This document shows, piece by piece, positions 1,376 through 58,399 of a DNA stretch of 64,000 bases. The first letter of the stretch is position 1. Every line of letters starts with the position of its first letter. This DNA is from a bacterium (GTDB lineage: Bacteria; Omnitrophota; Gorgyraeia; Aquiviventales; Aquiviventaceae): assembly GCA_036396895.1 (NCBI GenBank), contig DASWKB010000038.1, positions 13,145 to 77,144 on the forward strand, in the 5' to 3' direction. Made by a program: the position numbers and the translations under genes. The notes beneath the pieces were generated by a model. It saw only the letters and a list, made by a program, of their open reading frames with translations. It was not told where the DNA came from and did no database searches.

Positions 1376-3322
1376 TCAGCGCCGGGAAAACTCGTGCACG
1401 GCGTCAACGAAGATTCTCGCGTGATCGGGCGGCGTGCCCGGCAGCACGCCGTGGCCGAGGTTCGCGATATGGCCCGGGAGGCCTCCCGCCCGGCTCAACA
1501 GCCGGCGCACGCGCGCGCGGATCGTCTCCGGCTCCGCGAACAGCGCGACCGGATCGAGGTTGCCCTGAATGCCGACGCCGGAGCCGATTTGACGCCAGGC
1601 CTCATCGAGCTCGATGCGGTGATCGACGCCGATCACGTCGCCGCCCGCCTCCCGCATGGCCGCCAGCAGCGTCGCCGTCTGGGTCCCGAACTGGATCACG
1701 GGGGTCCCCTGCGGCAGCGCGCGGATCACCGCCCGCGTGTGCGGCAGCACGAACTCGCGGTAGTCCGCCGGAGAGAGGCAGCCGACCCAGCTGTCGAAGA
1801 GCTGCACCGCGTCGGCGCCGGCTTCGATCTGCCCGATCAGGTATTTCGCGATGCCCCGGGAGAGCTTCTCCATCAGCGCGCGCCAGGCGCCGGGGTCCCG
1901 GTACATGAAGCGCTTGGTTTGGATGAAGGATCTGGACGTGCCGCCTTCGATGATGTAGGACGCGAGCGTGAACGGCGCGCCCGCGAAGCCGATCAGCGGC
2001 ACGCGCGCGTCGAGCCCCGCGCGCGCCAGGCGCACGGCGTCGAACACGAATCCGAGCGATTCGCCGGGCTCGATCTCGCGGAGGCGGTCCACGCCCGCGG
2101 CGGTCACCGACGCGCCGCCGCCGATGACCGGCCCCTCCTCGGCCGTGTACTCGAGCTCCAGCCCCAGCGGCTCGACGATGAGCAGCAAATCGGAGAAGAT
2201 GATGGCCGCGTCCACGCCGAGCGATTCCACGGCCGAAATGGTGACTTCCGCGGCGAGCTCCTTCGTCTTGCACAGCTCAAGGAACGAGACCGCGCTGCGC
2301 ACGCGGCGATACTCCGGCAGATAGCGCCCCGCTTGGCGCATCAGCCACACGGGCGTCACGCCGGCGGCCTCGCCGCGGCAGGCGGCGAGAAAGGGCGAAT
2401 CGCGCCGGGCCTCCATCGGGCGCCCTGCGGAGGGAACGGCGCCGGTGAACCGATGGAGCGGGCGGGCGCGCGCCTCGAGCAGTGCCACCGCCTGCGCCGC
2501 CAGCTCCGACACGAACAGGCCCATCTTCGAATGCGTGGGCTCGAAGTCGGCCCGGAGACCGCAGTCCTGCAGCGTTTCGCTGGTCGTCGGCCCGATCGAG
2601 GCGATGACCACGCGCCGGAGCGCCTCGCGGAAGGCCCCTTCCCGGCCGCACTCCCCGGCCAGGCGCAACAGATGGCGCACCTGGGCGGCGTTCGTGAACA
2701 GCGCGAACTGCACGCCGCCGCCGATCACCGCGTCGATCGCGCGCAGCACCGGAGCGGTGTCGTCGGGCAGCGCCCACCGGTACACGGGCACCCGCATCAC
2801 CCGGGCGCCGCGGCGCTTCAGCGCCTCCAGCAGGCGTTCGTTCGAAACGCCGTACTCCTGCACGGCCACGAGCCGCCCCTCGAGGGGAACGCTGCGCTCG
2901 CTCTGCTCGAGGGCCTGCAGGATCTCCTGCCAGGTGTTGGGCTCGGGCACCGTCAGGGCGATCGCGATCCCCCGGTCCTTCAGCACCCGCAGCGGCTTCG
3001 GGCCGCGGGCCACGACGGTCACCTTCGAGAGCGCGGCGGCGATCCGGTCCCACGGGTCGCGCGACTCGAGCGTCTCCAGGAGCAGCCGGGTCCCGACGCC
3101 GGTCATGCACACGAGCACGTCCACCTCTCCTGCCAGCAGGCGCTCGCCGAAGGCGGCCGCCTCCGGCTGACGGCCGAGGGGCACCTCCTGCAGGGCGGGC
3201 GCGCTCAGGGGCATGCCGCCGTAGCGGGACACGCTTTTGGCCATCACGTCGGCCATCCGGCTTTCGAAGACGGCGACCGTGGTGCCCGCGAATCCCTGGG
3301 TTGTCGTCACTGTGTGCTGCAT
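1376..3322 (-). CDS. hemDE: Bifunctional uroporphyrinogen-III synthase (N-terminal, HemD-like) / uroporphyrinogen decarboxylase (C-terminal, HemE) fusion protein
   Basis: 648 aa single ORF. The C-terminal ~350 aa has the canonical HemE N-terminal motif PVWLMRQAGRYLPEYR. The N-terminal ~290 aa has a HEM4-like two-lobed fold (VDVLVCMTGVGTRLL, FALFTNAAQVRHLL). Confidence 0.8.
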   Translation of the reverse strand: MQHTVTTTQGFAGTTVAVFESRMADVMAKSVSRYGGMPLSAPALQEVPLGRQPEAAAFGERLLAGEVDVLVCMTGVGTRLLLETLESRDPWDRIAAALSKVTVVARGPKPLRVLKDRGIAIALTVPEPNTWQEILQALEQSERSVPLEGRLVAVQEYGVSNERLLEALKRRGARVMRVPVYRWALPDDTAPVLRAIDAVIGGGVQFALFTNAAQVRHLLRLAGECGREGAFREALRRVVIASIGPTTSETLQDCGLRADFEPTHSKMGLFVSELAAQAVALLEARARPLHRFTGAVPSAGRPMEARRDSPFLAACRGEAAGVTPVWLMRQAGRYLPEYRRVRSAVSFLELCKTKELAAEVTISAVESLGVDAAIIFSDLLLIVEPLGLELEYTAEEGPVIGGGASVTAAGVDRLREIEPGESLGFVFDAVRLARAGLDARVPLIGFAGAPFTLASYIIEGGTSRSFIQTKRFMYRDPGAWRALMEKLSRGIAKYLIGQIEAGADAVQLFDSWVGCLSPADYREFVLPHTRAVIRALPQGTPVIQFGTQTATLLAAMREAGGDVIGVDHRIELDEAWRQIGSGVGIQGNLDPVALFAEPETIRARVRRLLSRAGGLPGHIANLGHGVLPGTPPDHARIFVDAVHEFSRR

Positions 3323-3383
3323 CGTGCCTCAGCGGTGTGTGCGATTTCGATGACTGGATGATGCCGAGTCTGGAGCAGGCGCG

Positions 3384-3472
3384 GTGCCAAATTCGGAATG
3401 CGGAATTCGGAATGCGGAATGACGTTCAAGCAGATCGATTCCGAATTCTCAATTCCCAATTCCGAATGTCAC
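3384..3472. repeat. Heptamer-array hairpin element, GGAATKC family, copy 1 (MITE/REP-like)
   Basis: gtgccaaattcggaatgcggaattcggaatgcggaatg ... cgattccgaattctcaattcccaattccgaatgtcac. Tandem GGAATKC heptamers sit on the left arm and their complement on the right. Related copies at 42540-42678 and 55914-55996. Confidence 0.7.
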
Positions 3473-3495
3473 GTCGGACCATGGTCTCAACGCAG

Positions 3496-4572
3496 TTAAG
3501 GCTTGAGGTACTCCTCCCGATAGATGGTCACCAAGGAAAAGAACAGGGTCAGCACGACGGGGGCCAAGAAGACGCCGATCAGGCCGTAGGCGCGGATGCC
3601 GCCCAGGATGCCGAGAAACAGCAGGAGGTACGGCAGTTTGGTGCGCTCGCCGATGAGGGCCGGCTTGAGCAGGTTGTCCACCAGGCTGATGCCCGCCACG
3701 CCCAGCACAAACAGGATGCCGGCGCGGACGACCTCCTGCTGCACCAGCAGGTACACGACCAGCGGAAGCCACACCATGCTGGCGCCCGCCACCGGCAGCA
3801 GCGCCGCCAGGAACGTCAGCGCGCCGAACAGCACGGGAAACGGCACCCCGATCAGCCAAAAGATGATCCCGCTCAAGATCCCCTGCGCGATGCCCGTCAG
3901 CACCTGACCCCGGATGACCGCGGCGAGCGTCTCGTTGATCTGGCCGAACAGCGCCTGCTTCGTCTGGGCTCTGAGCGGCGTCACCTGATGGATGAAATCC
4001 ACGATGCCGGGACCGTGCCTGAGGAACACGTAGAGCAGCGCGAACGTCAGGAGCGCCGAGAGTCCGGACAGCAGGAGATTGCGCGTCAGCAGGCCGGCCT
4101 GCCGGGCCGAGAAGTTCCCCATGCCCTTGACCGCCTCGAGGAGCCAATCGGCGAAGTTCGACTTGGCGGGGCCGAGCTCCGCCACCTGGCGCTGCAGCTG
4201 CTGGAAGAGCGGCATCTCCCGCACGCGCTCGACCACCTCCTCGAGATGCCCCTCCTGGACATAGGCGGCGACCTGCTGGTAAAACCCCGCGGCCTGGAAC
4301 GCCAGTTTTGTGACTAACATCAGCACCGGCGGGACGAGCACCACCGCCAGGATCACCGTGACGGTGAGCGCCGCCAGCGGTTCGGTGAACCTGGCCCGCT
4401 CGATGAGCCGGCGCTGAAGCGGATAGCACGCGAACGCCAGGATGCCGGCCCACAGGATGGAATTGATGAACGGGGACAGCACCAGATACACCTGGTATAC
4501 GATGAACGCCAGGAGGAGCAGGAAGAATCCGTTCAGGAGCCGGTCGCGGGGCATCGCCACTGATTTTACCAC
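3496..4572 (-). CDS. AI-2E family transporter (PerM/YhhT, UPF0118) permease
   Basis: 358 aa, multiple TM helices and a length typical of the AI-2E family (…LLPVAGASMVWLPLVVYLL…). Confidence 0.8.
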   Translation of the reverse strand: MVKSVAMPRDRLLNGFFLLLLAFIVYQVYLVLSPFINSILWAGILAFACYPLQRRLIERARFTEPLAALTVTVILAVVLVPPVLMLVTKLAFQAAGFYQQVAAYVQEGHLEEVVERVREMPLFQQLQRQVAELGPAKSNFADWLLEAVKGMGNFSARQAGLLTRNLLLSGLSALLTFALLYVFLRHGPGIVDFIHQVTPLRAQTKQALFGQINETLAAVIRGQVLTGIAQGILSGIIFWLIGVPFPVLFGALTFLAALLPVAGASMVWLPLVVYLLVQQEVVRAGILFVLGVAGISLVDNLLKPALIGERTKLPYLLLFLGILGGIRAYGLIGVFLAPVVLTLFFSLVTIYREEYLKP

Positions 4573-4634
4573 ACCATCGCGGTTCCAAGCTGCGGGTTCC
4601 GCGTCAAAGGTTGGCGGCGAGGACCTGGGAATCC

Positions 4635-4839
4635 CGAGAGGCTGGAAGCTGGAGGCTGGAGGCTAGAATGAGTACGTGATCATTCTAAATGCGCCCACGA
4701 TTGCATCTAAACATTGGGCGCATTTACCCTGAGCGAAGTCGAAGGGTACCCCCTCGACTCGCTTTGCTCGCTCGGGGTAAATGGAACCCATTCGAATGTT
4801 AACATGCAATGTGGGTTCCATTTAGCTCCCAGCCTCTCG
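4635..4839. repeat. Heptamer-array hairpin element, GCTGGAR family, copy 1
   Basis: Perfect 11-bp terminal inverted repeats (cgagaggctgg / ccagcctctcg) enclose ggctggaagctggaggctggaggctag. Inside are three internal palindromes (tagaatga..tcattcta; aaatgcgccca..tgggcgcattt; aaatggaaccca..tgggttccattt). Confidence 0.7.
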
Positions 4840-4865
4840 CGTCCAACTTCTCATCGACTCGTTGC

Positions 4866-5465
4866 TCAGGAGGTCGGAGCGAAGTACGGGTTTGTCCCCG
4901 AGGCGTGGTCGGTGGTGTCGTAGATGTCCTTGATCTCCGGCAGCTGTTCGCGCAGCATGGCCTCGATCCCGTGCCGCAGGGTCACGTTGGCCATGCCGCA
5001 GCCGTGGCACCCGCCCCCCATGCGAAGGTACACGTTGCCCTCCCTAACGTCGGTGAGCTCGACGAACCCGCCGTGCTGGGCGATCGCCGGGTTGACCTTG
5101 GAGTCGAAGAGCTCCCGAATCCTGCGCATCAGCTCGAAGTCCGGCGCGCGCCGCGCCAAGAGCTGTTCGCTGACGGCCGGCTCCCCGCTCCCGAGGTGCG
5201 CGCGGATGACACCCGCGATCTGCGCGGCCGTGACGCGCCAGTCCTGCTCGTCATGCTTGGTGACCGTCAGGGTGTTCCCGGCGATCCGGACGCCGTGCAC
5301 TTTGGCCTCCTGAAACAGCTTCTCGGCCAGCCCGGACCCCTTCGCCGACTCAGGATCCGTGAACGAGACGGACCCCTCGGCGAGCAGCGTCCGGTCGATG
5401 GTCAGCTTGCACACTTCCGGCTCAGACGGCTCGAGGTGAGCCTCGATCTTGATGGTCTGGTCCAT
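4866..5465 (-). CDS. nfuA: Fe-S cluster scaffold/carrier protein, Nfu/NifU-like (Nfu_N + NifU C-terminal domain)
   Basis: 199 aa. The C-terminal CxxC motif GGGCHGCGMA is typical of the NifU-like domain. Confidence 0.75.
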   Translation of the reverse strand: MDQTIKIEAHLEPSEPEVCKLTIDRTLLAEGSVSFTDPESAKGSGLAEKLFQEAKVHGVRIAGNTLTVTKHDEQDWRVTAAQIAGVIRAHLGSGEPAVSEQLLARRAPDFELMRRIRELFDSKVNPAIAQHGGFVELTDVREGNVYLRMGGGCHGCGMANVTLRHGIEAMLREQLPEIKDIYDTTDHASGTNPYFAPTS

Positions 5466-5896
5466 GGATCGAACCTCCTTGGATGGAACGGCGGCGTGGC
5501 CTGCCTATTTACTATAGCATGTCGTCCCGTCGCCGAACACCCCTCCCCTTGCGACCCCCTTGAGTTTGGCGACCAGTAACCGGTCCTGTGCCGCCACGGA
5601 ACTTCAGGCGTGTGCCGGCGCGGAAGAGCATGTTTGTGCATCTGTGCAGAACCCCGTTTGTGCCACGACGCCACCCTCAACAACGGAATGTTGGATAGAT
5701 GCACATCGGCACAAGCGTGATGGTCCATGATGGCCCAAACGGCTGGTTTCGTGATGGGACAATCCTGCTCTCCCGATACAGCACAAGACTGACTCCGCAC
5801 TCCCCACTCCACACTCCGCACTTGGCGCGACCGCTCGCGACGTGCCCCTCGCCCCATGCCCCCCGCCCCGACACGGCCCACGGTCCAGAGACGTCG

Positions 5897-6715
5897 CTAC
5901 CAGGTGATCCCGGAACCGGTCGGCGTCCGCCAGACTCCCAGCAGCACTGGGAGGGTTCCCCCCCAAGCCAGCCGGCCGAAGCGGTCCACGGCGATGGCCG
6001 CCAGCCGTTTCCGGCGAAGCTCCCGGAGCATGCTCCGGAGCACGACTGCCGGCGAGCGTCCATCGCGCGCGCGTTCGGCGATCCGTACGGCCAGCGCGGC
6101 TTCGACGATATCCTCTCCCAGCCCGGTGCAGGACACGGCCACGTTGTCGCCGGCCCAGTTTCCGACAGGCATGCCGCTGTCGCTCACCCGCCCCGCGGAC
6201 GCGCGCCGCTTGCCCCCGGTTGAGGTGGCTGCCGCCAGGCGGCCGGCGCGGTCGACGGCGACCGCCCCGACCGTGCCCGGCCCCTGAGGACGGATAGCCC
6301 GCCAGGCAACGGCGGGCCCCGCCGCCAAGCCCAGCCGGCGGGCGAACCTCGAAGCTTCCGGCCCAGCCAGGATCCTGTCGGAGCGTCCCAGCAGCGCTCG
6401 AGCCGCCCGAACGGGGTTCCGGACTCGCTCAATATTGAGGACACCCCCGAACCGGCTTGATTCGCCGTCCATGACCGAGGCGCTCATCCGGACCCGCCCG
6501 TCCCGCTGGGCGACCGACCCGGTCCCGGCATTGAACATCGGGTCGTCCTCCAGCCTGGACACGGCGTCCACCACGGCCGCAAGCGCCCCGGACCGCCGCA
6601 GGACGCGGTAGCCGTACTCGCAGATGCGCCTCAGGCGGCGCTCGGCCTCCCGCAGGCGCGCCGTGTCCGCCTGCGATCCGGCCCCCCCATGGATCACCAG
6701 CGCTGGGCGGCTCAT
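5897..6715 (-). CDS. Isoaspartyl peptidase / L-asparaginase (Ntn-hydrolase, plant-type asparaginase family)
   Basis: ALVIHGGAG N-terminal motif and a GTVGAVAVD nucleophile region. The ORF in the track (to 6778) has a Gly/Arg-rich N-terminal extension; the true start is probably the internal Met of MSRPALVIHGGAG. Confidence 0.7.
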   Translation of the reverse strand: MSRPALVIHGGAGSQADTARLREAERRLRRICEYGYRVLRRSGALAAVVDAVSRLEDDPMFNAGTGSVAQRDGRVRMSASVMDGESSRFGGVLNIERVRNPVRAARALLGRSDRILAGPEASRFARRLGLAAGPAVAWRAIRPQGPGTVGAVAVDRAGRLAAATSTGGKRRASAGRVSDSGMPVGNWAGDNVAVSCTGLGEDIVEAALAVRIAERARDGRSPAVVLRSMLRELRRKRLAAIAVDRFGRLAWGGTLPVLLGVWRTPTGSGITW

Positions 6716-6840: not shown

Positions 6841-6957
6841 AGGCATGGGCGTGTGCGTGCTATCGACATGGATGGCTAACCACCGGCACTAACTGCTTGC
6901 ATCCATGGAATTTTCGATTATACTACTAGGGCTGTTTTCCACCAGGAGGGATGCTGC

Positions 6958-8169
6958 ATGAGACGGGCCGTGCGGCCGATTAGAATTGCCATCGTTGGCG
7001 TGGGAAATTGCGCCAGCTCTCTGTTGCAAGGCATCGCCTATTACGGGTCAAAGACTCCCGATGACGTCATCGGGCTCATGCACTGGGATCTCGGGGGCTA
7101 CCATCCCGGCGATCTCCAGGTAGTCGCGGCGTTCGACATCGATCAGCGCAAGGTCGGGCTGGACGTCGCAACGGCCATCTTCCAGCCCCCGAACTGCACC
7201 GCCGTCTTCCACCGCGAGGTGCCTCCCTCCGGCGCCACCGTGTCCATGGGCCCGGTGCTGGATGGCTATTCGGAGCACATGCGGGGCTACGAGGCGGCCC
7301 AGACGTTCCTCCCCGCGGACGTGCCCGAACCGACCGCCAAGCAGGTCATCGCCTCGCTCAAGGCCTCCGGTGCGGAGATCATGCTGAACTATCTGCCCGT
7401 CGGTTCCGAGCAGGCCACCCGGTTCTACGCCGAATGCGCGCTGGAGTCCGGGGTCGCATTCATCAACAACATGCCGGTGTTCATCGCCAGCGACCCCGCC
7501 TGGGCGGGCCGGTTCGCCGAGCGGAACCTGCCGATCATCGGCGATGACATCAAGTCCCAGCTCGGCGCCACCATCACCCACCGGGCGCTCACGGACCTCT
7601 TCAAGAAGCGCGGCGTCAAGCTCGAACGGACCTACCAGCTCAATACGGGCGGCAACACCGACTTCCTCAATATGCTCAACCGAACCCGGCTCTCGTCCAA
7701 GAAGCGCTCGAAGACCGAAGCGGTGCAGGCGGTGGCGGCCGAGCGCCTGGACCCCAACAACATCCACATCGGACCCAGCGACTACGTGCCCTGGCAGAAG
7801 GATAACAAGGTCTGCTTCATTCGGATGGAAGGCAAGCTCTTCGGCGACATCCCGATGAACCTCGAACTGCGGCTGTCGGTCGAAGATTCGCCGAACTCGG
7901 CCGGGGTCGCCATTGACGCCGTCCGCTGCTGTCGGCTGGCGCTCGACGCCGGACAAGGCGGGAACCTGGCAGGCCCCTCGGCGTACTTCATGAAGCATCC
8001 CCCCGCGCAGTTCCCTGACGACGAAGCGTACCGGATGGTCGAGGACTTCATCCGCACCCACCAGCCGGCCTCCAAGCCGGCTCCGGCGGGAGGGCGCTAC
8101 GCGGCCGCCGGCAGCGCCACCGACGGGAACGGCGCGCATTCCGTCGCGCGCATCGCGCGTAAAAAGTAA
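6958..8169 (+). CDS. ino1: myo-Inositol-1-phosphate (inositol-3-phosphate) synthase
   Basis: 403 aa. The N-terminus [20 protein letters not shown] matches the bacterial/archaeal MIPS Rossmann motif. There is a GGAGGG RBS upstream. This is the only convincing plus-strand gene in the window. Confidence 0.8.
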
Positions 8170-11622: not shown

Positions 11623-13007
11623 GCGCCCCCTCCCCGCGACTCCGCCCCCGGCAGGACCGGATGCGGCGACGCCAGCGTCTCCAGGTAGCGGCGCAGCGCC
11701 AGAGCCTCCTCCGGCCTCCCCGACCAGGGCGGCATGAAGAAATGATACCGGTCCAGATTCACGATGAGATGGTCCAGCATCCCGGGCGTCCAGCCGGGCA
11801 GCATTTCGCGCATGCCCGAATAGCCGCTCGCGGCGTGGCAGGAGCCGCAGTGGTGCATGAACACCGTCCGGCCGATGAGGCGCTGATCGGCCTCCGTCAG
11901 CGACGGGATGCGCGACTCATCGAGGCCGCCGCCGGAGACCAGCTGGGGCAGCCGCCCCGCAACGTACCGGCGCGTCCACACCCCCCCGTCGAGAAACCCG
12001 TCCCGCTTGAGGCGCGGCACCTCCGAGACGTAGATGTTGTGGCTGTACACCTCGCCGTAGATGACGAACGGCTTCCGGGCGGCCTCCCGCACGAATTCGG
12101 CCTGCCCGGTGACGATATAGCCGATGAGGAGCAGGAGCACGGCGAAGCCCGGGCTCACCCACTCGGGATGCCGGTAGGGGCCGAAGTAGAACATGAAGAA
12201 CACGACCACGCTGAGCGCGAAGATCAGCGCGATCATGAGGTTCATCGCCGCGGCGCCGATGAGCGTCGCCTTCGCGCTCGCCGGCAGCGCCGCGTGCCAC
12301 CAGAGGCCTCCCAGGGTGATGAGCACCGCCCCGGCCATCGCCGGCCGGGCCGAGCGGCGGGCGATCATCGCCCGCAGACCGGCCGGACCGTTCCAGAATG
12401 ACGAATGGACATAGACATACAGCGTCGCCAACAGCAGCGAGGCGCCGGTGCGGGCGACGATCTGCGGCAGGGTCTGAGGGTTCGCCCAGCCCCGCCAGAA
12501 GTCGCCCTGCCAGTCGCCGGGGTTGAGCATGAACGCGGTGATGCCGGTGATGATCACGAGGCTCATCCAGGCCGAGCCGGCGTAGATCCAGGCCATCGCC
12601 TGGTGCGCGCGCGGGGTGAGCCGGTCCCACGCGTAGTAGAAGATGAAGGCCGAGACGATCTCGATGAGGAAGAAGACGTACTCCATCGCCCAGCCGAACA
12701 CGAAGAGGTGGATGAGCATCTGGGTGGGGAGCGGAGAGGCGAGCCCGATGGTCCACCAGATGCCCACGCCCGTGATCGCCCCGTAGACGACGGTGAGCAG
12801 GATGAAGAACCACGCGTGCCGCCGGAGGTACGCCAGGTAGGCCGCGTTGCCGGTCCGGTAGGCGTGCCGGGTCTCCACCGCGAGGAACAACCCGCCGCCC
12901 ACCGCGTAGAGCGCGACGTAGATGTGGAGCACCGCGACGGCCGCGATGAGCATGGGGGCGGTCAGGCCGGGCACGTACCAGAACGGGTAATGCATGGCTG
13001 CGCTCAC
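11619..13007 (-). CDS. Cytochrome bd-type oxidase subunit I (CydA)-like membrane protein with a C-terminal monoheme cytochrome c domain
   Basis: The N-terminal ~330 aa has CydA-like helices (…FIFYYAWDRL… compares with the CydA FFFGWDRL region; EAARKPFVIYG compares with EAGRQPW). The C-terminal soluble domain contains MHHCGSCHAASGY, a CxxCH heme c site. Confidence 0.55.
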   Translation of the reverse strand: MSAAMHYPFWYVPGLTAPMLIAAVAVLHIYVALYAVGGGLFLAVETRHAYRTGNAAYLAYLRRHAWFFILLTVVYGAITGVGIWWTIGLASPLPTQMLIHLFVFGWAMEYVFFLIEIVSAFIFYYAWDRLTPRAHQAMAWIYAGSAWMSLVIITGITAFMLNPGDWQGDFWRGWANPQTLPQIVARTGASLLLATLYVYVHSSFWNGPAGLRAMIARRSARPAMAGAVLITLGGLWWHAALPASAKATLIGAAAMNLMIALIFALSVVVFFMFYFGPYRHPEWVSPGFAVLLLLIGYIVTGQAEFVREAARKPFVIYGEVYSHNIYVSEVPRLKRDGFLDGGVWTRRYVAGRLPQLVSGGGLDESRIPSLTEADQRLIGRTVFMHHCGSCHAASGYSGMREMLPGWTPGMLDHLIVNLDRYHFFMPPWSGRPEEALALRRYLETLASPHPVLPGAESRGGGA

Positions 13008-14168: not shown

Positions 14169-16160
14169 TCAGAGCCGGCCGCGCACGAGCTGCTGCGCGA
14201 CCGCCGGGTCGGCGAGCGTCGTCGTGTCGCCCAGGTTGTCCACTTCACCGGCCGCCACTTTCCGGAGGATGCGCCGCATGATCTTGCCGGAGCGGGTCTT
14301 CGGCAGCGCGTCGGTGAACTGGATCTTCTCCGGCGTCGCGATGGGACCGATCACCGCACGCACGTGCGACATGAGCTTCTTGCGCAGCTCATCCGTGGGC
14401 TCGACGCCCTGCTTCAAGGTGACGTAGCAGTAGAGGCCCTGCCCCTTCACCTCATGCGGAAACCCGACCACCGCCGCTTCCGCGACCGTTTGGTGCGCCA
14501 CCAGGGCGCTCTCGACCTCCGCCGTGCCGAGCCGGTGCCCCGAGATGTTGATGACGTCATCGATGCGGCCCATCAGCCAGTAGAAGCCGTCCGCGTCGAC
14601 CCGGCAGCCGTCCCCGGTGAAGTACTTGCCCGGGAACATAGAGAAGTACACGTCCTTGATCCGCGTGTGCGCCGGATCGCCGTAGACGCCGCGGAGCATG
14701 CCGGGCCAGGGCTGCGTGATCACGAGCGAGCCGCCTTCGTTGACGGCGGCTTCCGTGCCGTCCTGCCGGAGCACCTGCGGGACCACGCCGAAAAACGGCT
14801 TTGTCGCGGATCCCGGCTTGGTCCCCAGCGCGCCCGGCAGCGGCGTGATCAGAATGCCCCCGGTCTCCGTCTGCCACCAGGTGTCCACGATCGGGCAGCG
14901 CGCCTTCCCGATGACCCGGTGGTACCACATCCACGCTTCCGGGTTGATCGGCTCGCCGACCGACCCCAGGATGCGCAGGCTGGAGAGGTCGTGTTTATTC
15001 GGCCACTCCTCCCCGAGCCGCATCAGGGCGCGGATCGCCGTCGGCGCCGTGTAGAACACCGTCACTTTATACTCCTCGACGATCTGCCAGAACCGGTCGG
15101 GCTCGGGGAACGTCGGAATGCCCTCGAACATGATCGCCGTCGCGCCGTTGGAGAGCGGCCCGTAGACGATGTAGGAGTGCCCCGTCACCCATCCGATGTC
15201 CGCCGTGCACCAGAACAGATCGTCATCGTGCACGTCGAAGATATACTTGAAGGTGACATGGACGAAGAGCAGGTAGCCCGCCGTCGTGTGGAGCACGCCC
15301 TTGGGCTTGCCGGTTGAGCCGCTCGTGTAGAGGATGAACAGCGGCGACTCCGCGTCCATCGGCTCAGGCGGGCACGGCCGGGCGGCCTCCGGACGCGCCA
15401 TCTCCTCATGCCACCAGAGGTCGCGGCCGGCCGTCATGGCGCAGCTGCCGTCGCCCCGGCGGTATACGATCACGGTCTTCACGCTCGGGCAATCCGCGAG
15501 CGCCTCGTCCGCCTTCGCCTTCATGCCGAGGGATTTGCCCCCGTGCACCGCCGCATCCGTCGTCACCAGGAGCCGCGAGTTGCAGTCCTGCAGCCGGTCC
15601 CGCAGGGCGCTGGGGCTGAACGCCGAGAACACGACCGAATGGATGGCGCCGATTCTCGTGCAGGAGAGCATCGCGACCGCCAGCTCCGGGATCATCGGCA
15701 TGAAGAGGGTCACCCGGTCCCCGCGCGTCACGCCGTGCGCCTTCAGGACGTTCGCGAACCGGCACACCTCGGCGTGCAGCTCTTCATACGTCAGGGTCCG
15801 CTTGTCCTTCGAGGATTCCCCCTGCCAGATGATGGCGGGCTTGGTCTTACGCGGCCCATCGAGATGACGGTCGAGGCAGTTGGCGCTCACGTTCAGCTGC
15901 GCGCCGTGGAAATACTCCACGTAGGGATGCTCGGTCTCGCCGATCGTGGACCAGTCGGAGCGTACGACCGCGTCCCAGCGCGTCATCCAGCTCAGGTGCT
16001 CCTCGGCCATCCGGCCCCAGAACGCCTCGGGCGACCGCACCGACTCTTCGTACATCATCCGGTATTCCTCTTCGCCCTTGATGAACGCGCCTTCCCGGAC
16101 TTTCGCGGGAGGATCGAAGCGCCGCTCCTCCTGCAGCAACGACGAAATATCTTGCGCCAT
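14169..16160 (-). CDS. acs: Acetyl-CoA synthetase (AMP-forming)
   Basis: About 660 aa from [18 protein letters not shown]. Carries the AMP-binding signature [12 protein letters not shown] and Acs-specific N- and C-terminal regions. Confidence 0.9.
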
Positions 16161-16187
16161 CGCATCCTCCTTCTCAGTATTCGCGAG

Positions 16188-16274
16188 AAGCTGGAGGTTG
16201 GAGGCTAGAAGCTCGAACATTCCAGCTTCCAGCATCCAGCTTCCAGCATCCAGCATCCAGCTTCCAGCTTCCGA
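16188..16274. repeat. Heptamer-array hairpin element, GCTGGAR family, copy 2 (includes a 7x CCAGCWT tandem array)
   Basis: gctggaggttggaggctagaagctcgaacattccagcttccagcatccagcttccagcatccagcatccagcttccagcttcc, between hypE and acs. Confidence 0.65.
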
Positions 16275-16302
16275 CCAGTGCCCTTGACCCGCGTGATGCG
16301 GT

Positions 16303-18458: not shown

Positions 18459-18709
18459 GGCGGCGGCGCCTCAAGTTCCGCGAGCTCGCCCATGCGCCGC
18501 AGGTAGTCGAAGACGACGGTCGCTTCCTGCTCGTCGACTTTGCTGATCGCGAACCCGACGTGCACGATCACGTAGTCCCCCACCCCGGCCTCGGGGACAT
18601 AGGAGAGGTTGACGGGCTTGAGGACGCCGCCGAAGCTCACCTTTCCGGTCCGCGCGCCGGGCTCCTCCCGCTCGAGGCGCACGATTTGTCCGGGCACGCC
18701 GAGGCACAT
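18455..18709 (-). CDS. hypC: Hydrogenase maturation protein HypC
   Basis: [11 protein letters not shown]-terminus (the MCL(A/G)(I/V)P signature), about 84 aa. Confidence 0.85.
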
Positions 18710-21414
18710 CACGTCCTCCGCTCGCTTCGGTCGGCGGCGAGAGCCTGGCCGAGCGACAGTCCGCCGTCATTCGGCGGAACGCGCTGATGCCAGTAGGGGC
18801 GAAATCCGGCATCGCGCAGGCGGCGCACCGCCCGCTCGGTCAGCCGGCGGTTCTGGAAGCACCCGCCGCTGAGCGCGACACGGCGCTCGCCGATCGCGGC
18901 GGCCGCCGCAAGGATATATTCTACCAAGGTCTCGTGCACGTTCGCCGCGATGATTCCCGCGTCCACGCCGCGCCGGCGGTCCTCGAGGAGCCCGCGCACC
19001 ATCGGACCCCAGTCGATCACGATGGGCGAGTCCGCCCCTCCCGGCCGGCCCAGCCGCACAGGGTACGGCCCGGAGCCGTCCGCGCGCCCGGCCACGTCTT
19101 CCAGCAGCATCGCCGCCTGCGCTTCGAACGCCGCGACCTGCCGCAGCCCGATGAGCGCGGCGACGGCGTCGAAGAGCCGCCCGGCGCTCGAGGTGATCGG
19201 CGCGTGGATCCCGCGCCTCAGCATGACCCGCAGCACCTCCCGCTCCTTCGGTGTGAACGCGGCCAGCGCCGGCACCTCGCGGCGCGAAAACGCCCCCTCG
19301 CCGAAGAGCTCGTACAGCACGCCGAGCGCCGAGCGCCGCGGCTCCTTGACGGCCTGATCCCCGCCCGGGAGGCGGAACGTGCGCAAGTGCGCCGCGCGCT
19401 CGAACCCCCGGGCGCCGACGCGAAGGAATTCCCCTCCCCAGACCGTGCCATCGAGCCCGTACCCCGTGCCGTCCCAGGCGACGCCGAGGACCGGCGGCTC
19501 CAGGTCGTTCTCCGCCATGCAGCTGAGCACGTGCGCGTAGTGATGCTGCACCGCCACGACCGGGAGGCCCGTCTGCCCGGCATACTGGGTCGAGCGGTAA
19601 TCCGGGTGGGCGTCGCAGGCGACCGCCTGAGGCCGCGCCTCGTGCAGGCGCGCGAGGTTCTCCGCGGCCTGCTGGAACGCGGCATACGCCTGCACGGTCT
19701 CGAGATCGCCCAGGTGCTGGCTGACGACCACGCCGGAGCCGACGGTGAGCGCGACGGTGTTCTTCAGGTGCCCGCCGACGGCGAGCACGGTCCGGACGGA
19801 GCGCCGCTTCAGCGGCACCGGCAGAGGGGCGTAGCCGCGCGCCCGGCGGATCAGAAGCTCGCGCTCGAGCACGACGCGCACGACGGAATCGTCCACGTGC
19901 CTGGCGATCGGCCGGTTGTGGACCAGAAAGAGGTCGGCAATGCCCTCCAGCCTGTCCAGCGCCTCGCTCTCGTCCGTGCAGATCGGCTCGTCCGAGAGGT
20001 TACCGCTGGTCGCCACGATGGGACCCGCGACCGCCTGAACGAGCAGGTGGTGCAGCGGCGTGTACGGGAGCATGACGCCCAGCGTCCGTTGCCCGGGGGC
20101 GAGGCTCTCCGCCAACGGGGACTCCTCAGGCCGGATCCGCTTCTCGAGCAGCACAATCGGGGCCTGGGGAGACGCGAGGAGGCGCTCCTCGATTTCCGAT
20201 ACGTCGCACTGCGCCCGCACCGCGCCGACCGAGCGCACCATCACCGCCAGCGGCTTCTCCTCGCGCCGCTTGCGCTCGCGCAGTTCCCGCACGGCGCCGT
20301 CATTGCGCGCGTCCGCGACCAGATGGAATCCGCCGAGCCCCTTGACCGCCACGATGCCGCCTGAGCGCACTGCCTCGGCCGCCGCCGCGAGCGCGGCGGC
20401 GTCCCTGGCCAGCACCGCGCCCGCCGGATCCCACAGCGCCAGACGGGGTCCGCAGGCCGGGCAGGCGTTCGGCTGGGCGTGGAACCGGCGGTCGGCCGGA
20501 TCGTCGTATTCGCGGCGGCAGTCCGGGCAGAGCGTGAAGCGGCTCATCGTCGTGGCCGGCCGGTCGTAGGGCAGTGCGAGGATAATGCTGAACCGCGGCC
20601 CGCAGTTCGTGCAGTTGGTGAACGGATACCGGAAGCGGCGGTCGCGCGGATCGTCGAGCTCCCGACGGCAGTCCGCGCACGTCGCCAAATCTGGCAGGAC
20701 GACGCCGGTCCGGGCGCCGCCCTGACCGCTTTGGCGGATGGCGAAACCGCGGAGCCCGGCCGCGTCCAGCCAGCGGACCTCCTCGCTGTACACCGCGGCC
20801 TGTGGCGGGAGATCATGGCGGAGCCCCTCCAGCAGCCGCGCGAGCGTCTCCGGAGCGCCTTCCGCCTCGACGATCACGCCTTGGGGGGAGTTCTGCACCC
20901 AGCCGTCGAGCCCGAGCCGGGTCGCCAGCCGGTGCACGAAGGGACGGAACCCGACGCCCTGTACCGCGCCGGTCAGGGCGACGTGGAGCCGCCGCCGCTC
21001 CTGCCGCGCGATCCGGATCCCGGATTGTTGCGCCATCGGACTCTCCATCCGCCGTGACGGCCCCTCGGCCGCCTCCGTCGAATCCGCCACCGTCACGTCG
21101 ATCACCTCGAGCGCGTGCGCACCCGGCACCTCGATCAGCGCGCCGCAGGCGCCGCACGGGAGCATCGACCCGGCGAGCGCGTCGTGCGTCACGGGCTCAT
21201 CGCGCCCGCACGCGCACCGGACGGACGTCACGCCCGGCTCGATGATGACCTCGGCGGACTCCAGGACGGACCCCGCCGAGGCGGCCGCGAGGGCGTGCCG
21301 CACCGCCTCGGGCGCGAGCGCGCCTCCCGCACGGACCCGCACCTGTCGTACTCCTGTCGGGAACCGCCGGGTGAGCTCGCGCATCAGGGCCAAGACGGAG
21401 CCGGATTCATGCAT
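18709..21414 (-). CDS. hypAF: HypA-HypF fusion: N-terminal HypA (Ni-insertion zinc-finger protein) fused in-frame to carbamoyltransferase HypF
   Basis: MHESGSVLALMRELT… plus CxxC…CxxC (CACGRD…CGACG) make a HypA of about 115 aa. After a linker comes the HypF acylphosphatase domain (LTGAVQGVGFRPFV), two CxxC zinc fingers, and the YrdC and Kae1-like domains, ending …GGLSLGQ. There is no stop codon between the HypA and HypF parts. Confidence 0.75.
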   Translation of the reverse strand: MHESGSVLALMRELTRRFPTGVRQVRVRAGGALAPEAVRHALAAASAGSVLESAEVIIEPGVTSVRCACGRDEPVTHDALAGSMLPCGACGALIEVPGAHALEVIDVTVADSTEAAEGPSRRMESPMAQQSGIRIARQERRRLHVALTGAVQGVGFRPFVHRLATRLGLDGWVQNSPQGVIVEAEGAPETLARLLEGLRHDLPPQAAVYSEEVRWLDAAGLRGFAIRQSGQGGARTGVVLPDLATCADCRRELDDPRDRRFRYPFTNCTNCGPRFSIILALPYDRPATTMSRFTLCPDCRREYDDPADRRFHAQPNACPACGPRLALWDPAGAVLARDAAALAAAAEAVRSGGIVAVKGLGGFHLVADARNDGAVRELRERKRREEKPLAVMVRSVGAVRAQCDVSEIEERLLASPQAPIVLLEKRIRPEESPLAESLAPGQRTLGVMLPYTPLHHLLVQAVAGPIVATSGNLSDEPICTDESEALDRLEGIADLFLVHNRPIARHVDDSVVRVVLERELLIRRARGYAPLPVPLKRRSVRTVLAVGGHLKNTVALTVGSGVVVSQHLGDLETVQAYAAFQQAAENLARLHEARPQAVACDAHPDYRSTQYAGQTGLPVVAVQHHYAHVLSCMAENDLEPPVLGVAWDGTGYGLDGTVWGGEFLRVGARGFERAAHLRTFRLPGGDQAVKEPRRSALGVLYELFGEGAFSRREVPALAAFTPKEREVLRVMLRRGIHAPITSSAGRLFDAVAALIGLRQVAAFEAQAAMLLEDVAGRADGSGPYPVRLGRPGGADSPIVIDWGPMVRGLLEDRRRGVDAGIIAANVHETLVEYILAAAAAIGERRVALSGGCFQNRRLTERAVRRLRDAGFRPYWHQRVPPNDGGLSLGQALAADRSERRT

Positions 21415-21973
21415 CGGGCACCGCCGGCTCAGGCGCGCGCGGAGGCGCGGACGGACACGCCAGGTCCCGCAGGATGCGCCCCGCGACCTTCGCAGACGCC
21501 CGTCGCACCGCGGGCGTGACCGGCGCTCCGGGATCAAAGCAGTCCCCCTCGATGCCGTACACCATCACCCGGGCCGGCAGACGGCGCATCGCCCGGGCCA
21601 GCTCGATCGCGTCGGCGACGCCCATCCCGTGCGTCGAGTGCTGGCGCAGCTCAGCCGGTACGGGACCCTCGCTCACGGCGAGCCGGTGGATCGTCCCCGG
21701 CCGAGCGCCGGAGGCGACGGCATCGATGAGCACGACGTGCTCATGGGCCGCCCAGGCATCCAACAACTCCGTCAGCGCGCCCCCGGCTTCGAGGATCTCG
21801 ACGCCCGGCAATGCCGCGGACCGAATGCGGCGCGCCGCCAGCACCCCGGCGGCGTCATCGCCGCGGAGCGTGTTCCCCATGCCCACCACGAGCACCCGCC
21901 CGGCCGGCAGAGGCGCCGCCGGACCGGCCGATGCCGCATCCGTCCCGGATGTCCGGCGCGCACGTCCCCGCAT
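21407..21973 (-). CDS. Hydrogenase maturation endopeptidase (HycI/FrhD/HoxW family)
   Basis: VLVVGMGNTLRGDDAAGV (GNxLxxDDG motif), about 160-188 aa, immediately downstream of the large subunit. Confidence 0.75.
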   Translation of the reverse strand: MRGRARRTSGTDAASAGPAAPLPAGRVLVVGMGNTLRGDDAAGVLAARRIRSAALPGVEILEAGGALTELLDAWAAHEHVVLIDAVASGARPGTIHRLAVSEGPVPAELRQHSTHGMGVADAIELARAMRRLPARVMVYGIEGDCFDPGAPVTPAVRRASAKVAGRILRDLACPSAPPRAPEPAVPDA

Positions 21974-40686: not shown

Positions 40687-42603
40687 CTACACCTCGTCAT
40701 CCGGCTCGTTCTCGCGGTGGGCCCGATCCGACTCCGAGGGCCGCCCGCTGATCCACGTCCACTTCATCGGGTACTCGTCCGGGTCGAACATCACGAAGTA
40801 GAAGTGCCACACGGCGATCGCCAGGCACGCGAGGACCGCCTCGTAGTAGTGAATCGCGTTCACCACGTCGAAGCACCACTTCGGGAACACGCGCAGCGTC
40901 CAGTCCTGCCAGGTCATCAGCGTGCCCGTCAGCACCATCACGATGGAGCCCCACACGAGCGCCCAGTACTCCATCTTCTCGACATAGCTGTAGCGGGCGA
41001 AGACCGGCCGCGCCGCGCGCCGTCCCAGGTAGAACGCCAGCATGCGGAACGGATCGATGAGATCGCGGCGCCTCGGCCACAGCGCCGCCAGCTCCTTCCT
41101 GCCGCGCGTCGTGGCGGCCATGAACCACAGGTGGTACACCGACAGCAGCACGAACAGCGCCGCCGCGACCCGGTGCCCCATGCTCCGCCAATCGAACCGG
41201 CCGACGAAGGGGCTCGACCACCAGGCCTGCGGGAACGACAGCGCGAAGCCCGTGTAGGCCAGCGTCAGGAACGCGAGAATCAACAGGACGTGCTGGAGGC
41301 GCTCGCCGCGCTGCATCCGCATGCCGGTGGCCTGAGCCCGGTGGCGGCGGTAATGCTCGGCGAGCTTCCGCCTGAAGTCCAGGAAGTTGTGCGCGAGCAT
41401 CCCGCCGATCACCATCACGATCAGCGCCAGGTAGAACCTGCGGACCCACCCGACGACGCGGTGCTCCAGGCCCGGCCGGGTGCCTGAGTGGATCTGCCCT
41501 TTGGCGACCTGGGCGCTGACGCCGGGGTGGCACTTCCCGCAGGTCTGCGGCAGGTTCGAGGGATGCACCGAGGAGCGGGGGTCGTTCGAGGGGAGGATAT
41601 CGTGGGCCCCGTGGCAGGAGGCGCAGTTCGCCGCCGTCGGCATGCCCATCTGCAGCGCAAGCCCGTGGAAGCTCGACATGTAGGTGTCGACGGTGTGCGA
41701 CGGGAGCCCGTACTTGGTGATGATGCGCTCGGCTGCGTGGCACTGCCCGCACGTCTCGGGAATGTGCGAGGGGAAGACCGACGATGCGGCCAGCTTCACG
41801 GACGCGATGGTGTGCTCGCCGTGGCAGTCGGTGCAGACCGGCGCCTCGCGCTTCCCCGCCTGGACGGCGCCGCCGTGGACGCTGCGCAGGTACGTCTGCT
41901 GGATGTTCTCATGGCATTTCCCGCAGGTGGCCGGGATGCGCTGCCAGTAGAGCTTCGACCCCGGATTGGTCGCGCGGTGCAGATCGTGCGAGCCGTGGCA
42001 GTCCGTGCACACGGCCGCCGCCGCCACGCCCCGCTCGATGAGCGCCCGGCCGTGCACGCTCTCATCGTAGGAGGCCACCGGCTCGGGCTGCGCCAGCCGG
42101 AACCGGGCCATCTCGGCGGTCTTCCCGTGGCATTGCGCGCAGGTCTCGGGAATGTTGGCCCGGTGCACGGGCGAGGCGGGGTTGCGCGAGCTCAGCAGCT
42201 CATGGGCGTTGCCGTGGCAGCTGCGGCAGGTCGCCGCTTCGGTGACGCCGGCTTTCAGCGCCAGGCCGTGATCGCTGTTCAGGTAGACTTCGGTCTCGAT
42301 CCGGTGGCAGGAGGCGCAGCTCACGGGCGCAAGCGGCACGCCGTGCGGGATCTCCGTCACGTCCCGGTGGCAGCTCGTGCAGCGGTTGCGGCCGTGGATC
42401 GAGGCTCCGAACAGCTCGGGGTCGATGAACGGGTCCGCGGACGGGTCGCCGTGGCACGCCAGGCACGTGTCATTGTCCGGAGCCTCCTGCGCGCGCGCCG
42501 GCGCTGCGAATGCCAACACCAATCCCAGCGCCAACCATCGTGCCAAATTCGGAATTCGGAATGCGGAATGGCTCGGCGTACCGTTCGATGTGGAATGTGT
42601 CAT
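40687..42603 (-). CDS. Undecaheme c-type cytochrome fused to a C-terminal diheme cytochrome b (HydC/FdnI-like) membrane domain; same architecture as Geobacter CbcL
   Basis: 11 CxxCH motifs follow a signal peptide. The C-terminal 4-5 TM helices carry conserved His (MLAHNFLDF, SVYHLWF, NAIHYYEAVL, AVWHFYF). The start codon and N-region lie inside the GGAATKC element. Confidence 0.7.
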   Translation of the reverse strand: MTHSTSNGTPSHSAFRIPNLARWLALGLVLAFAAPARAQEAPDNDTCLACHGDPSADPFIDPELFGASIHGRNRCTSCHRDVTEIPHGVPLAPVSCASCHRIETEVYLNSDHGLALKAGVTEAATCRSCHGNAHELLSSRNPASPVHRANIPETCAQCHGKTAEMARFRLAQPEPVASYDESVHGRALIERGVAAAAVCTDCHGSHDLHRATNPGSKLYWQRIPATCGKCHENIQQTYLRSVHGGAVQAGKREAPVCTDCHGEHTIASVKLAASSVFPSHIPETCGQCHAAERIITKYGLPSHTVDTYMSSFHGLALQMGMPTAANCASCHGAHDILPSNDPRSSVHPSNLPQTCGKCHPGVSAQVAKGQIHSGTRPGLEHRVVGWVRRFYLALIVMVIGGMLAHNFLDFRRKLAEHYRRHRAQATGMRMQRGERLQHVLLILAFLTLAYTGFALSFPQAWWSSPFVGRFDWRSMGHRVAAALFVLLSVYHLWFMAATTRGRKELAALWPRRRDLIDPFRMLAFYLGRRAARPVFARYSYVEKMEYWALVWGSIVMVLTGTLMTWQDWTLRVFPKWCFDVVNAIHYYEAVLACLAIAVWHFYFVMFDPDEYPMKWTWISGRPSESDRAHRENEPDDEV

Positions 42604-42678
42604 GGACCGGCCGAGCGGGCATGACACGTTACACATCCAACATGACACAATCGGGATTCCGCATTCCGCATTTGGCAC
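42540..42678. repeat. Heptamer-array hairpin element, GGAATKC family, copy 2 (longest; near-perfect terminal inverted repeats)
   Basis: gtgccaaattcggaattcggaatgcggaatg …(unique core with tgtcatg/catgaca and ggctcggc/gccgagc sub-palindromes)… gggattccgcattccgcatttggcac. Confidence 0.75.
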
Positions 42679-42686
42679 TGATTTCG

Positions 42687-55913: not shown

Positions 55914-55996
55914 GTGCCAAATGTGGAATTCGGAATTGGGAATTCGGAATGTGCTCCCGGTTTTCAATTCCGCATTCCGCATTCCGCATTTGGCAC
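55914..55996. repeat. Heptamer-array hairpin element, GGAATKC family, copy 3
   Basis: gtgccaaatgtggaattcggaattgggaattcggaatg tgctcccggtttt caattccgcattccgcattccgcatttggcac. Confidence 0.7.
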
Positions 55997-58103: not shown

Positions 58104-58198
58104 ATGCTACAGCATCTGCACAGATCCGTTCCATGACATCCGTCATATTCGTCAACAAAGCCGGCCTGGGGCTGGAACGGGGCGGGGGGCGGGGACGT

Positions 58199-58372
58199 GG
58201 GGATGACCATGAGAGCATGAGAAGGTAGAAGATGGAGGGTGGAGGGTGGAAGAGAGAAGATGGAAGGTGGAGGGTAGAAGGTAGAAGGTAGAAGATAGAA
58301 GGTAGAGTTATATTGTCATTTGTACTTTCTATCTTCTACCTTCTATCTTCTACCTTCTCACGGTCATCCCCA
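58199..58372. repeat. Octamer-array hairpin element, GGTAGAAG/GGTGGAGG family
   Basis: Terminal inverted repeats ggggatgaccatgaga / tctcacggtcatcccc enclose (ggtagaag/ggtggagg)n, an AT-rich loop (ttatattgtcatttgtac), then (cttctacc/cttctatc)n. Confidence 0.7.
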
Positions 58373-58399
58373 CATCCGCGCCCCCCGGCCCAATCGTGA

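Follow-up and report, generated by a model that had tools for sequence, protein, structure and literature searches.

A 139-bp transposable element very probably nested in a heptamer-repeat foldback in a 64-kb stretch of Omnitrophota DNA

The 64,000-nucleotide stretch of contig DASWKB010000038.1 analysed here (assembly GCA_036396895.1, from a bacterium of the Omnitrophota; hereafter the window) carries at 4635-4839 a palindrome-rich feature of 205 bp, which an earlier note on this DNA had described as one structured non-coding unit. This feature is very likely made up of two selfish or neutral DNA elements, a miniature inverted-repeat transposable element (MITE) of 139 bp being nested in a heptamer-repeat foldback. 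The foldback and the MITE both belong to known kinds of repeat, of which they are new representatives, and the whole, although instructive, is rather ordinary bacterial junk DNA, with no new RNA gene. All the features listed in the earlier note are present in the sequence, and its list is completed here by hairpin C; nevertheless, the single-unit description has to be abandoned, given that hairpins B, C and D form the separate transposable element and hairpin A is the apex of the original hairpin. The extent also changes, as the right arm at 4825-4852 is itself a heptamer array, so the element reaches 4852. The parts of the two copies of the foldback are the following.

4636-4685: left arm and apex of foldback copy 1, terminus CGAGAGGCTGG followed by heptamer units at 4641-4668
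4664-4687: hairpin A, TAGAATGA/TCATTCTA, 8 bp
4686-4824, + strand: MITE, 139 bp, with TA at 4686-4687 and TA at 4823-4824, one TA being the duplicated target
4686-4726: hairpin B, TAAATGCGCCCA/TGGGCGCATTTA, 12 bp, left terminal hairpin of the MITE
4721-4783: hairpin C, 16 bp with one mismatch, central hairpin of the MITE
4725-4748, + strand: unit TACCC-TGAGCGAAGTCGA-AGGGTA inside the MITE, a short hairpin with loop GAGCGAAGTCGA; a diverged inverted copy lies at 4750-4777
4778-4824: hairpin D, TAAATGGAACCCA/TGGGTTCCATTTA, 13 bp, right terminal hairpin of the MITE
4825-4852: right arm of foldback copy 1, made of four degenerate heptamer units (GCTCCCA GCCTCTC GCGTCCA ACTTCTC), with CCAGCCTCTCG at 4829-4839
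16183-16275: foldback copy 2, uninterrupted

The inner 139 bp is assigned to a MITE because it occurs in many copies with fixed boundaries, unrelated flanks, terminal inverted repeats and a TA duplication, and the possibility of a mobile element, raised in the earlier note, thus holds for this part. Scanning metagenome contigs with the 24-mer TACCCTGAGCGAAGTCGAAGGGTA, the source of the MITE copies compared here, detected it in at least 119 loci, and about 60 of the 105 distinct contexts listed hold the whole B-C-D module of ~139 nt, from TAAATGCGCC... to ...GGTTCCATTTA, within unrelated flanks. When the whole window was compared by megablast with the listed metagenome loci, only 4685-4825 gave matches (57 matches, 82-100% identity), and these end at C/TA...TA/G, the slashes marking boundaries 4685 and 4825. 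The window MITE is 100% identical to the L393+ copy, whose flanks differ, identity reaches 96% or more in at least 11 copies, and at least 47 insertions with distinct flanks were counted among the loci listed. In these 47 insertions, C (68%) and T (23%) predominate immediately before the element and G (72%) and A (21%) immediately after it, which defines a YTAR target. Conservation of the terminal sequences TAAATG...CATTTA was seen across 40 copies, and together with the target TA the ends read TA-AATGCGCCCAC...GTGGGTTCCATT-TA. Hairpins B and D are inverted homologues of each other and thereby provide 31-nt imperfect terminal inverted repeats (4685-4715 versus 4795-4825, 74% complementary). 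Transposases of the IS630/Tc1-mariner group use CTAG-type targets and duplicate TA, and a TA-duplicating transposase of this type would mobilise the MITE in trans.

Within the window the MITE is a single-copy sequence, as seen by nhmmer: segment 4686-4824 does not recur elsewhere in it, TAAATG/CATTTA has no other occurrence in the 64 kb, and the inner part 4664-4825, unique in the window, has ~50% GC versus 69% for the window as a whole. A 52-aa open reading frame (ORF) at 4663-4821 on the minus strand and three other small ORFs of the element region have no Pfam match and no homologue; a coding role was discarded for all of them, these ORFs being by-products of the palindromic TAAATG ends. 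Literature searches by sequence string and peptide motif retrieved no publication on this MITE or on GCTGGAR arrays.

The foldback that surrounds the MITE has a perfect 11-bp terminal inverted repeat, CGAGAGGCTGG at 4635-4645 pairing with CCAGCCTCTCG at 4829-4839. Its left arm contains at 4641-4668 the heptamers GCTGGAA, GCTGGAG and GCTGGAG, then the variant GCTAGAA, with an unoccupied CTAG at 4663, and its apex, hairpin A, reads TAGAATGA-gtacgtga-TCATTC(TA). The two arms are complementary over 30 nt at 77% and over 16 nt at 94%. In copy 2, the left arm at 16183-16217 consists of GCGAGAA GCTGGAG GTTGGAG GCTAGAA GCTCGAA (4-5 GCTGGAR-like units, with an unoccupied CTAG at 16205), and the right arm at 16220-16272 consists of 7.6 units of TTCCAGC/ATCCAGC as measured by Tandem Repeats Finder (TRF), its end reading TTCCGAC. 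The tandem array attributed to copy 2 in the earlier note was thus recovered, while the structure as a whole is a simple hairpin in which two heptamer arrays face each other. Apart from the heptamer arms, the only features common to both copies are the termini and the GCTAGAA unit.

The interrupted foldback also preserves a record of the insertion. Excision in silico of the MITE and one TA joins TCATTC-TA-GCTCCC and gives a single hairpin (-60.5 kcal/mol, z = -7.8), whose apex is hairpin A and whose arms have four heptamer units each, the reconstructed empty site being ...GATCATTCTAGCTCCCAGCC.... Arm complementarity can be used as a ruler, as the left arm GCTAGAATGA predicts the right arm TCATTCTAGC and the sequence observed is TCATTC-TA-(MITE)-TA-GC. 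Another ruler is the heptamer register, since the 7-nt frame of the flanking array is kept at loci L390 and L393 only if exactly one TA is counted as target; the flanks of L406 give, by eye, the one-TA reading too. Arm complementarity and the register at L390 and L393 therefore show that exactly one TA comes from the target. In the right arm of copy 1, the MITE would have entered the CTAG of the innermost GCTAGAA unit and duplicated the central TA of this site. At three other loci (L393+, L390 and L406), it likewise lies in CTAG-bearing variant units of GCTGGAR or YTCCAGC arrays.

The tetranucleotide CTAG is ~30-fold under-represented in the window (6 observed versus 181 expected), and two of the six sites, plus the occupied site, fall within the two GCTGGAR elements. 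Because CTAG is almost absent from the genome, the variant GCTAGAA units would act as MITE traps, and such trapping would account for the presence of the same MITE in units of this kind at several loci. GATC and TCGA are 2.5-2.7-fold over-represented in the window. The locus thus illustrates target funnelling, in which heptamer variants bearing CTAG become landing pads under a 30-fold depletion of this tetranucleotide, and it offers the heptamer register as an internal ruler for the size of a target-site duplication when no empty site is at hand.

The two window loci belong to one repeat family, as the earlier note had proposed, and further members, with the same termini and apex, are found in related metagenome contigs (L393 and L406), contrary to what would be expected if no additional copies existed anywhere. 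All three hairpin families of the window, their non-repeat termini included, are also present in about 77 kb of related contigs with near-identical MITE copies (GC 64-69%). The GCTGGAR members outside the window are the following.

L393: 1687-1781, 3198-3264, 6906-7064 and 12452-...
L406: 5359-...

The four members in L393 and the one in L406 share with the window copies the termini CGAGARGCTGG / CCAGCYTCTCG and an inner GCTWGAA unit (GCTAGAA/GCTTGAA), and the apex GAATGAGT..GATCATTC of copy 1 recurs in them. The L406 relative has the same TTCCGACCAG end as copy 2 and bears the MITE. The number of units differs among members, from about 2 to 8 per arm, and is identical for copy 2 between two assemblies of its locus. 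According to the history proposed here, the lineage would carry a dispersed intergenic foldback family with opposed GCTGGAR arrays as arms and with conserved termini and apex; copy 2 would be an intact foldback and copy 1 would formerly have been likewise. The number of units per arm would change by replication slippage in 7-nt steps, which is a process that would yield the arm differences observed. The four GCTGGAR hairpins of L393 lie in 12.7 kb (1660-1810, 3170-3300, 6880-7100 and 12430-12600) and have longer common flanks with CCGTCTG/TCCGTC heptamers, and would therefore be parts of larger composite repeat units in the related organism.

Outside this lineage, GCTGGAR arrays are widespread. 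A scan for three consecutive GCTGGAD units, with one genome per species, gave at least 120 stretches, among them stretches of Acidobacteriota, Bacteroidota, Planctomycetota, Gemmatimonadota, Chloroflexota, Actinomycetota, Armatimonadota, Pseudomonas/Stutzerimonas/Halomonas and others. An inverted partner lies within 300 nt in 23 of the 120 stretches listed, many of which form clean hairpins, and among the matches listed both arrays and hairpins occur in the first six of these phyla and in Pseudomonas/Halomonas. The 896 kb of listed stretches hold 91 other heptamer arrays, whereas no other period between 4 and 12 exceeds 16 arrays. An extreme density was seen in L086 (Acidobacteriota metagenome-assembled genome AnMBR.bin219), where 8 kb contain 17 separate heptamer arrays built from several types of unit, and this genome would be well suited to the study of such repeats.

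Hairpin C brings in a motif with a wider distribution than the MITE. It includes the 18-mer CCTGAGCGAAGTCGAAGG, which has exact matches in 101 viral contigs, with ~2 expected by chance if the collection has ~6e10 bases, a size that is our own guess. This 18-mer usually appears as the conserved loop GAGCGAAGTCGA closed by short variable stems, or as inverted pairs. The GAGCGAAGTCGA hairpin was seen in diverse AT-rich to GC-rich genomes, namely viral contigs (L126-L226), metagenome contigs (L344-L462) and Sphingomonas plasmids (H1-H9), with closing stems such as TACCC/GGGTA, CATCC/GGATG, CGCCC/GGGCG and AACGT/ACGTT, and in different forms (alone, in inverted pairs of the type CCGTTCGCCCTGAGCGAAGTCGAAGGGC...GCTTCGACTTCGCTCAGCACGAACGG, or in tandem). 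Related palindromes are multi-copy and unannotated in the Sphingomonas plasmids. Eleven loci with the GAGCGAAGTCGA hairpin gave no Rfam match, the hairpin is unannotated, and sequence-string searches found no publication on it.

Other candidate families and associations were discarded. The hairpin B/D loop ATTGCATSTWAACATT, a control 16-mer with two degenerate positions, is not a family of its own, with 113 viral-contig matches versus ~112 expected by chance for the same guessed ~6e10 bases; a flanking stem of at least 6 bp is found in 3 of the 113 and the CCCA/TGGG stem in none. A hairpin-shaped pattern for D had as its sole match one unrelated coding sequence. A general link between GAGCGAAGTCGA and heptamer arrays was also rejected (0 of 105 contexts in the array test and 0 of 102 in the lag-7 run test, with similar controls), and the GCTGGAR loci show one GAGCGAAGTCGA unit near an array versus 0.6 expected. 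The exception is L203 (4830-4930, an IMG/VR contig), where a GCTRGAA-type heptamer hairpin has two GAGC..TCGA units in its loop and lacks the MITE termini; it is an independent composite that resembles copy 1.

The structure of the feature invites readings in terms of RNA. The three hairpins of the MITE are kept by compensatory changes: an alignment of 40 distinct copies has 98.3% of its cells paired and double changes in 9 pairs and 46 cells, values reached by none of 500 shuffles and well above slid controls. Together with the invariance of the central loop GAGCGAAGTCGA, which is also found in unrelated hairpins of many genomes, this would agree with the 139-bp module being a structured RNA, either small and non-coding or cis-regulatory, whose copies reflect function and not transposition. 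This explanation is quite unlikely, however, as homology breaks off abruptly at TA/TA, the insertions favour a YTAR target, near-identical copies lie in unrelated flanks and within repeat arrays, where a gene-specific role is unlikely, and no Rfam family matches; moreover, most compensatory changes are in hairpin D and are common to subfamilies, so that few independent events are represented. Similarly, the region 4620-4860 folds very stably (-120 kcal/mol, z = -10.3) into a five-way junction on either strand and lies between co-directional genes, as would suit a single multi-branched RNA of 205 bp, with an outer stem and four hairpins, acting in intercistronic processing or termination between nfu and the AI-2E transporter gene. 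Nevertheless, the inner 139 bp differs from the outer arms in both history and family, copy 2 lacks the inner part, the full 205-bp arrangement is repeated at no other locus as a conserved unit, and other loci with the MITE in an array have insertions in different arms and registers. Such a single RNA would be extremely improbable, and the homology boundaries already largely refute it. Against Rfam 15 the window gave no gathering-level match, and 4500-4950 only far sub-threshold chance matches (E up to 10). A MITE nested in a foldback therefore stays the preferred interpretation of the feature.

The origin of the foldback can also be explained in other ways. The GCTGGAR hairpins could have arisen independently, by local slippage of a favoured heptamer on pre-existing hairpins, with no dispersed family involved. 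This would be consistent with the occurrence of such arrays in at least 120 stretches of many phyla, with the inverted partners found within 300 nt in 23 of the 120, with the lack of termini common to hairpins across phyla and with the 91 other heptamer arrays in the same loci; it is rendered unlikely by the termini CGAGARGCTGG, the GCTAGAA/GCTTGAA unit and the apex GAATGAGT..GATCATTC shared by the copies of this lineage, as well as by the conserved non-repeat termini of the other two hairpin families of the window. Another proposal would liken the heptamer foldbacks to REP/REPIN elements: a RAYT (IS200/IS605-type) transposase would mobilise them, and their heptamer arms would be a secondary trait. 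They are indeed short, multi-copy extragenic palindromes with conserved ends that lie just after genes, a lifestyle like that reported for such repeats (PMC3116915), but the GTAG or CGTC head tetranucleotide by which the class is recognised (PMC3733652) is missing from their ends, and no RAYT gene turned up in the 64-kb window, where no search aimed at RAYT was made; this origin is improbable. A broader idea, that heptamer-armed foldbacks form a distinct cross-phylum dispersed class and that the GAGCGAAGTCGA loop is a pan-bacterial functional module, is doubtful, albeit conceivable. If true, the former would point to a dedicated mechanism or binding factor operating in 7-nt steps, and the latter would mean that a conserved host or transposon protein recognises the loop in the MITE, in the Sphingomonas palindromes and in the solo hairpins of AT-rich genomes.

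With regard to the preferred interpretation, a MITE within a lineage-specific foldback, several results weigh against it. The ~3 Mb of fetched loci contain no autonomous insertion sequence (IS) with the MITE ends, the only ends paired 0.5-3 kb apart in these loci being those of two MITEs in L393, and annotated plasmid and phage collections gave no match to the MITE. No empty orthologous site was recovered for the window insertion. Compensatory changes are not needed by a plain DNA parasite and may reflect an RNA or single-stranded DNA function. Finally, the foldbacks would be cotranscribed with the co-directional genes and might act as 3' stem-loops, that is, as partial terminators or protectors of mRNA 3' ends, the one argument for this being their position, 6-49 nt past stop codons and between co-directional genes; such a terminator or stabiliser role is weakly grounded, because there is no U-tract or T run after either hairpin and because the gain in stability of copy 2 over shuffles is modest (z = -2.3). 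A scan of 3300-6000 placed no intrinsic terminator in the element.

Two side observations concern expression at these loci. GAGAAG, the unit of copy 2 that lies farthest out (16186-16191), can pair with CTTCTC at 16171-16176, immediately next to the ribosome-binding site of acs, so that the long copy 2 hairpin and a small hairpin near this site would be mutually exclusive. A promoter-like match, TTTAGA-18-TAGAAT, spans the junction of MITE and flank on the minus strand (4711..4682) and is not relied on, because an AT-richer insert inflates such matches.

The GCTGGAR foldbacks are not the only heptamer hairpins of the window. Searching it for GCTGGARGCTGGAR with up to two mismatches gave 20 matches versus 2.3 expected, a number attained by none of 100 shuffles, and a lag-7 scan found 8 arrays of period 7, the sole over-represented tandem period, versus 0-1 for the other periods from 4 to 12; TRF reported period 7 at 4641-4668 and 16220-16272. 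At least six intergenic hairpins with heptamer-array arms, in three sequence families, are present in the 64 kb, and in six of the seven elements, those with a callable stop, the element starts 6-49 nt past the upstream stop codon. The families are the following.

GCTGGAR family: copy 1 and copy 2 in the window
GGAATKC family: 3378-3470, 42531-42680 and 55916-55996 in the window, and 8198-8263 in L366, with conserved termini GTGCCAAAT...ATTTGGCAC
AGAAGGT family: 58170-58390 in the window, and 6224-6398 in L366, 5969-6212 in L390, 5713-5898 in L427 and 5574-5672 in L430

The conserved non-repeat termini of the GGAATKC and AGAAGGT families are GTGCCAAAT...ATTTGGCAC and GGGATGACCATGAGAAGGT. In the AGAAGGT family, arrays of AGAAGGT/GGAGGGT (12 units) face TACCTTC arrays (5 units) in arms of strongly asymmetric length, and the arrays lie within a GC-rich outer stem with a conserved flank, GGGGATGACCATGAGA. 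The GGAATKC copy at 42531-42680 has between its arms an additional inner hairpin, GATGTGGAATGTGTCATG...CATGACACGTTACACATC, which may be another nested insertion. Direct, not inverted, arrays of ACTCCGC (x4.4) and GCCCCAC (x3.7) occur at 5792-5869, between nfu and the asparaginase gene, which are 431 nt apart.

Nearly all genes of the window are on the minus strand, and the earlier note was right about the flanking genes, nfu and the AI-2E transporter gene at copy 1 and hypE and acs at copy 2, co-directional in both cases.

3496-4554, - strand: AI-2E family transporter gene, downstream of copy 1
4866-5465, - strand: nfu (NifU-like; Pfam NifU and Nfu_N), upstream of copy 1
14169-16160, - strand: acs (acetyl-CoA synthetase), downstream of copy 2

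Copy 1 of the foldback lies 13 nt from the nfu stop codon and 81 nt from the start codon of the AI-2E transporter. The copy 2 hairpin is 22 nt from the acs start, with the ribosome-binding site GGAGGA in between, and the hypE stop, at 16303, lies 27 nt beyond its other side. There is no orthologous spacer for comparison, the nearest AI-2E relatives (51-56% identity) not being adjacent to nfu. An assembly artefact was ruled out, as both copies are reproduced exactly in independent European Nucleotide Archive (ENA) assemblies. The megahit contigs of the source samples end or start exactly at the MITE (L001 ends and L003 starts there, at 4685-4825) with an overlap of k = 141, as expected because a multi-copy repeat does this to de Bruijn assembly; the MITE thus accounts for short-read assemblies of this organism breaking at 4685-4825. 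Elsewhere in the window, a single 648-aa ORF fuses HemD (uroporphyrinogen-III synthase) and HemE (URO-D) at 1376-3322 (minus strand), and a 942-aa HypF with an N-terminal HypA-like domain is encoded at 18709-21537 (minus strand).

The resolution of an elaborate 205-nt "RNA structure" into two ordinary repeat classes avoids a false annotation of a non-coding RNA. It also brings to light an undescribed MITE family with structured termini and a TA duplication that is widespread in metagenomes, where its distinct insertions number at least 47. Moreover, lineage-specific heptamer-hairpin families with conserved termini bear on the long-open nature of bacterial heptamer repeats.

Several known systems resemble one or the other component of the feature. 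The Correia/NEMIS elements of Neisseria and the ERIC/RUP-type MITEs are non-coding elements of ~100-160 bp with terminal inverted repeats, which insert at TA and duplicate it; they are multi-copy, lie in intergenic regions within transcription units and form hairpins in mRNA, and RNase III processing and promoter activity are known for the Correia elements. The window MITE is like them in being short, non-coding and multi-copy, with terminal inverted repeats and a TA duplication, but it has no sequence similarity to them, its termini form hairpins and flank a central hairpin, its target is YTAR, mostly CTAG, and its hosts are uncultured, with contigs of 64-69% GC. Its target and duplication match the (C/T)TA(G/A) target and TA duplication of the IS630 family, a link drawn from target-site behaviour alone. 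The small dispersed repeats (SDRs) of Nostocaceae go back to Elhai et al. 2008 (cited in PMC5861425). SDRs, which measure 21-27 nt and are not known outside Nostocaceae, are reportedly mobile and nested in other repeats, among them tandem heptamer arrays and hairpins; the repeat-within-repeat architecture is alike, whereas the inserted element is here a 139-bp MITE with a target-site duplication. The cyanobacterial STRR heptamers are another class of intergenic heptameric repeat.

REP/REPIN sequences are multi-copy extragenic palindromes found after genes and able to protect mRNA 3' ends (PMC3116915; PMC3733652). Their palindrome measures 20-40 bp and has a conserved GTAG or CGTC head, whereas the foldbacks have arms made of heptamer arrays and CGAGARGCTGG termini without such a head. 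The over-representation of heptameric repeats in intergenic DNA is a known and poorly understood phenomenon (PMC4692102), other examples being the TAACTGA repeats of Beggiatoaceae and cyanobacteria (PMC4679880) and heptamers that lie close to start codons in Nostoc (bioRxiv 10.1101/2022.06.06.494920). Of the GGGAATC arrays of Xanthomonas, 89-93% are intergenic; their mean distance from the upstream ORF is 28 nt, comparable to the 6-49 nt past stop codons of the window elements, and they form 70-75 convergent inverted pairs that are potential stem-loops, their function being still unknown (PMC4692102). The Xanthomonas GGGAATC and Nostoc GGGGAYT heptamers (PMC4692102) are likewise intergenic, with a period of 7 and a length that varies between loci, and those of Xanthomonas include the inverted pairs capable of forming stem-loops; in contrast, the unit in the foldbacks described here is GCTGGAR, there is no G-quadruplex potential, and termini and apices outside the repeats are conserved, because of which the window hairpins resemble families of dispersed elements in their behaviour more than mere repeats.

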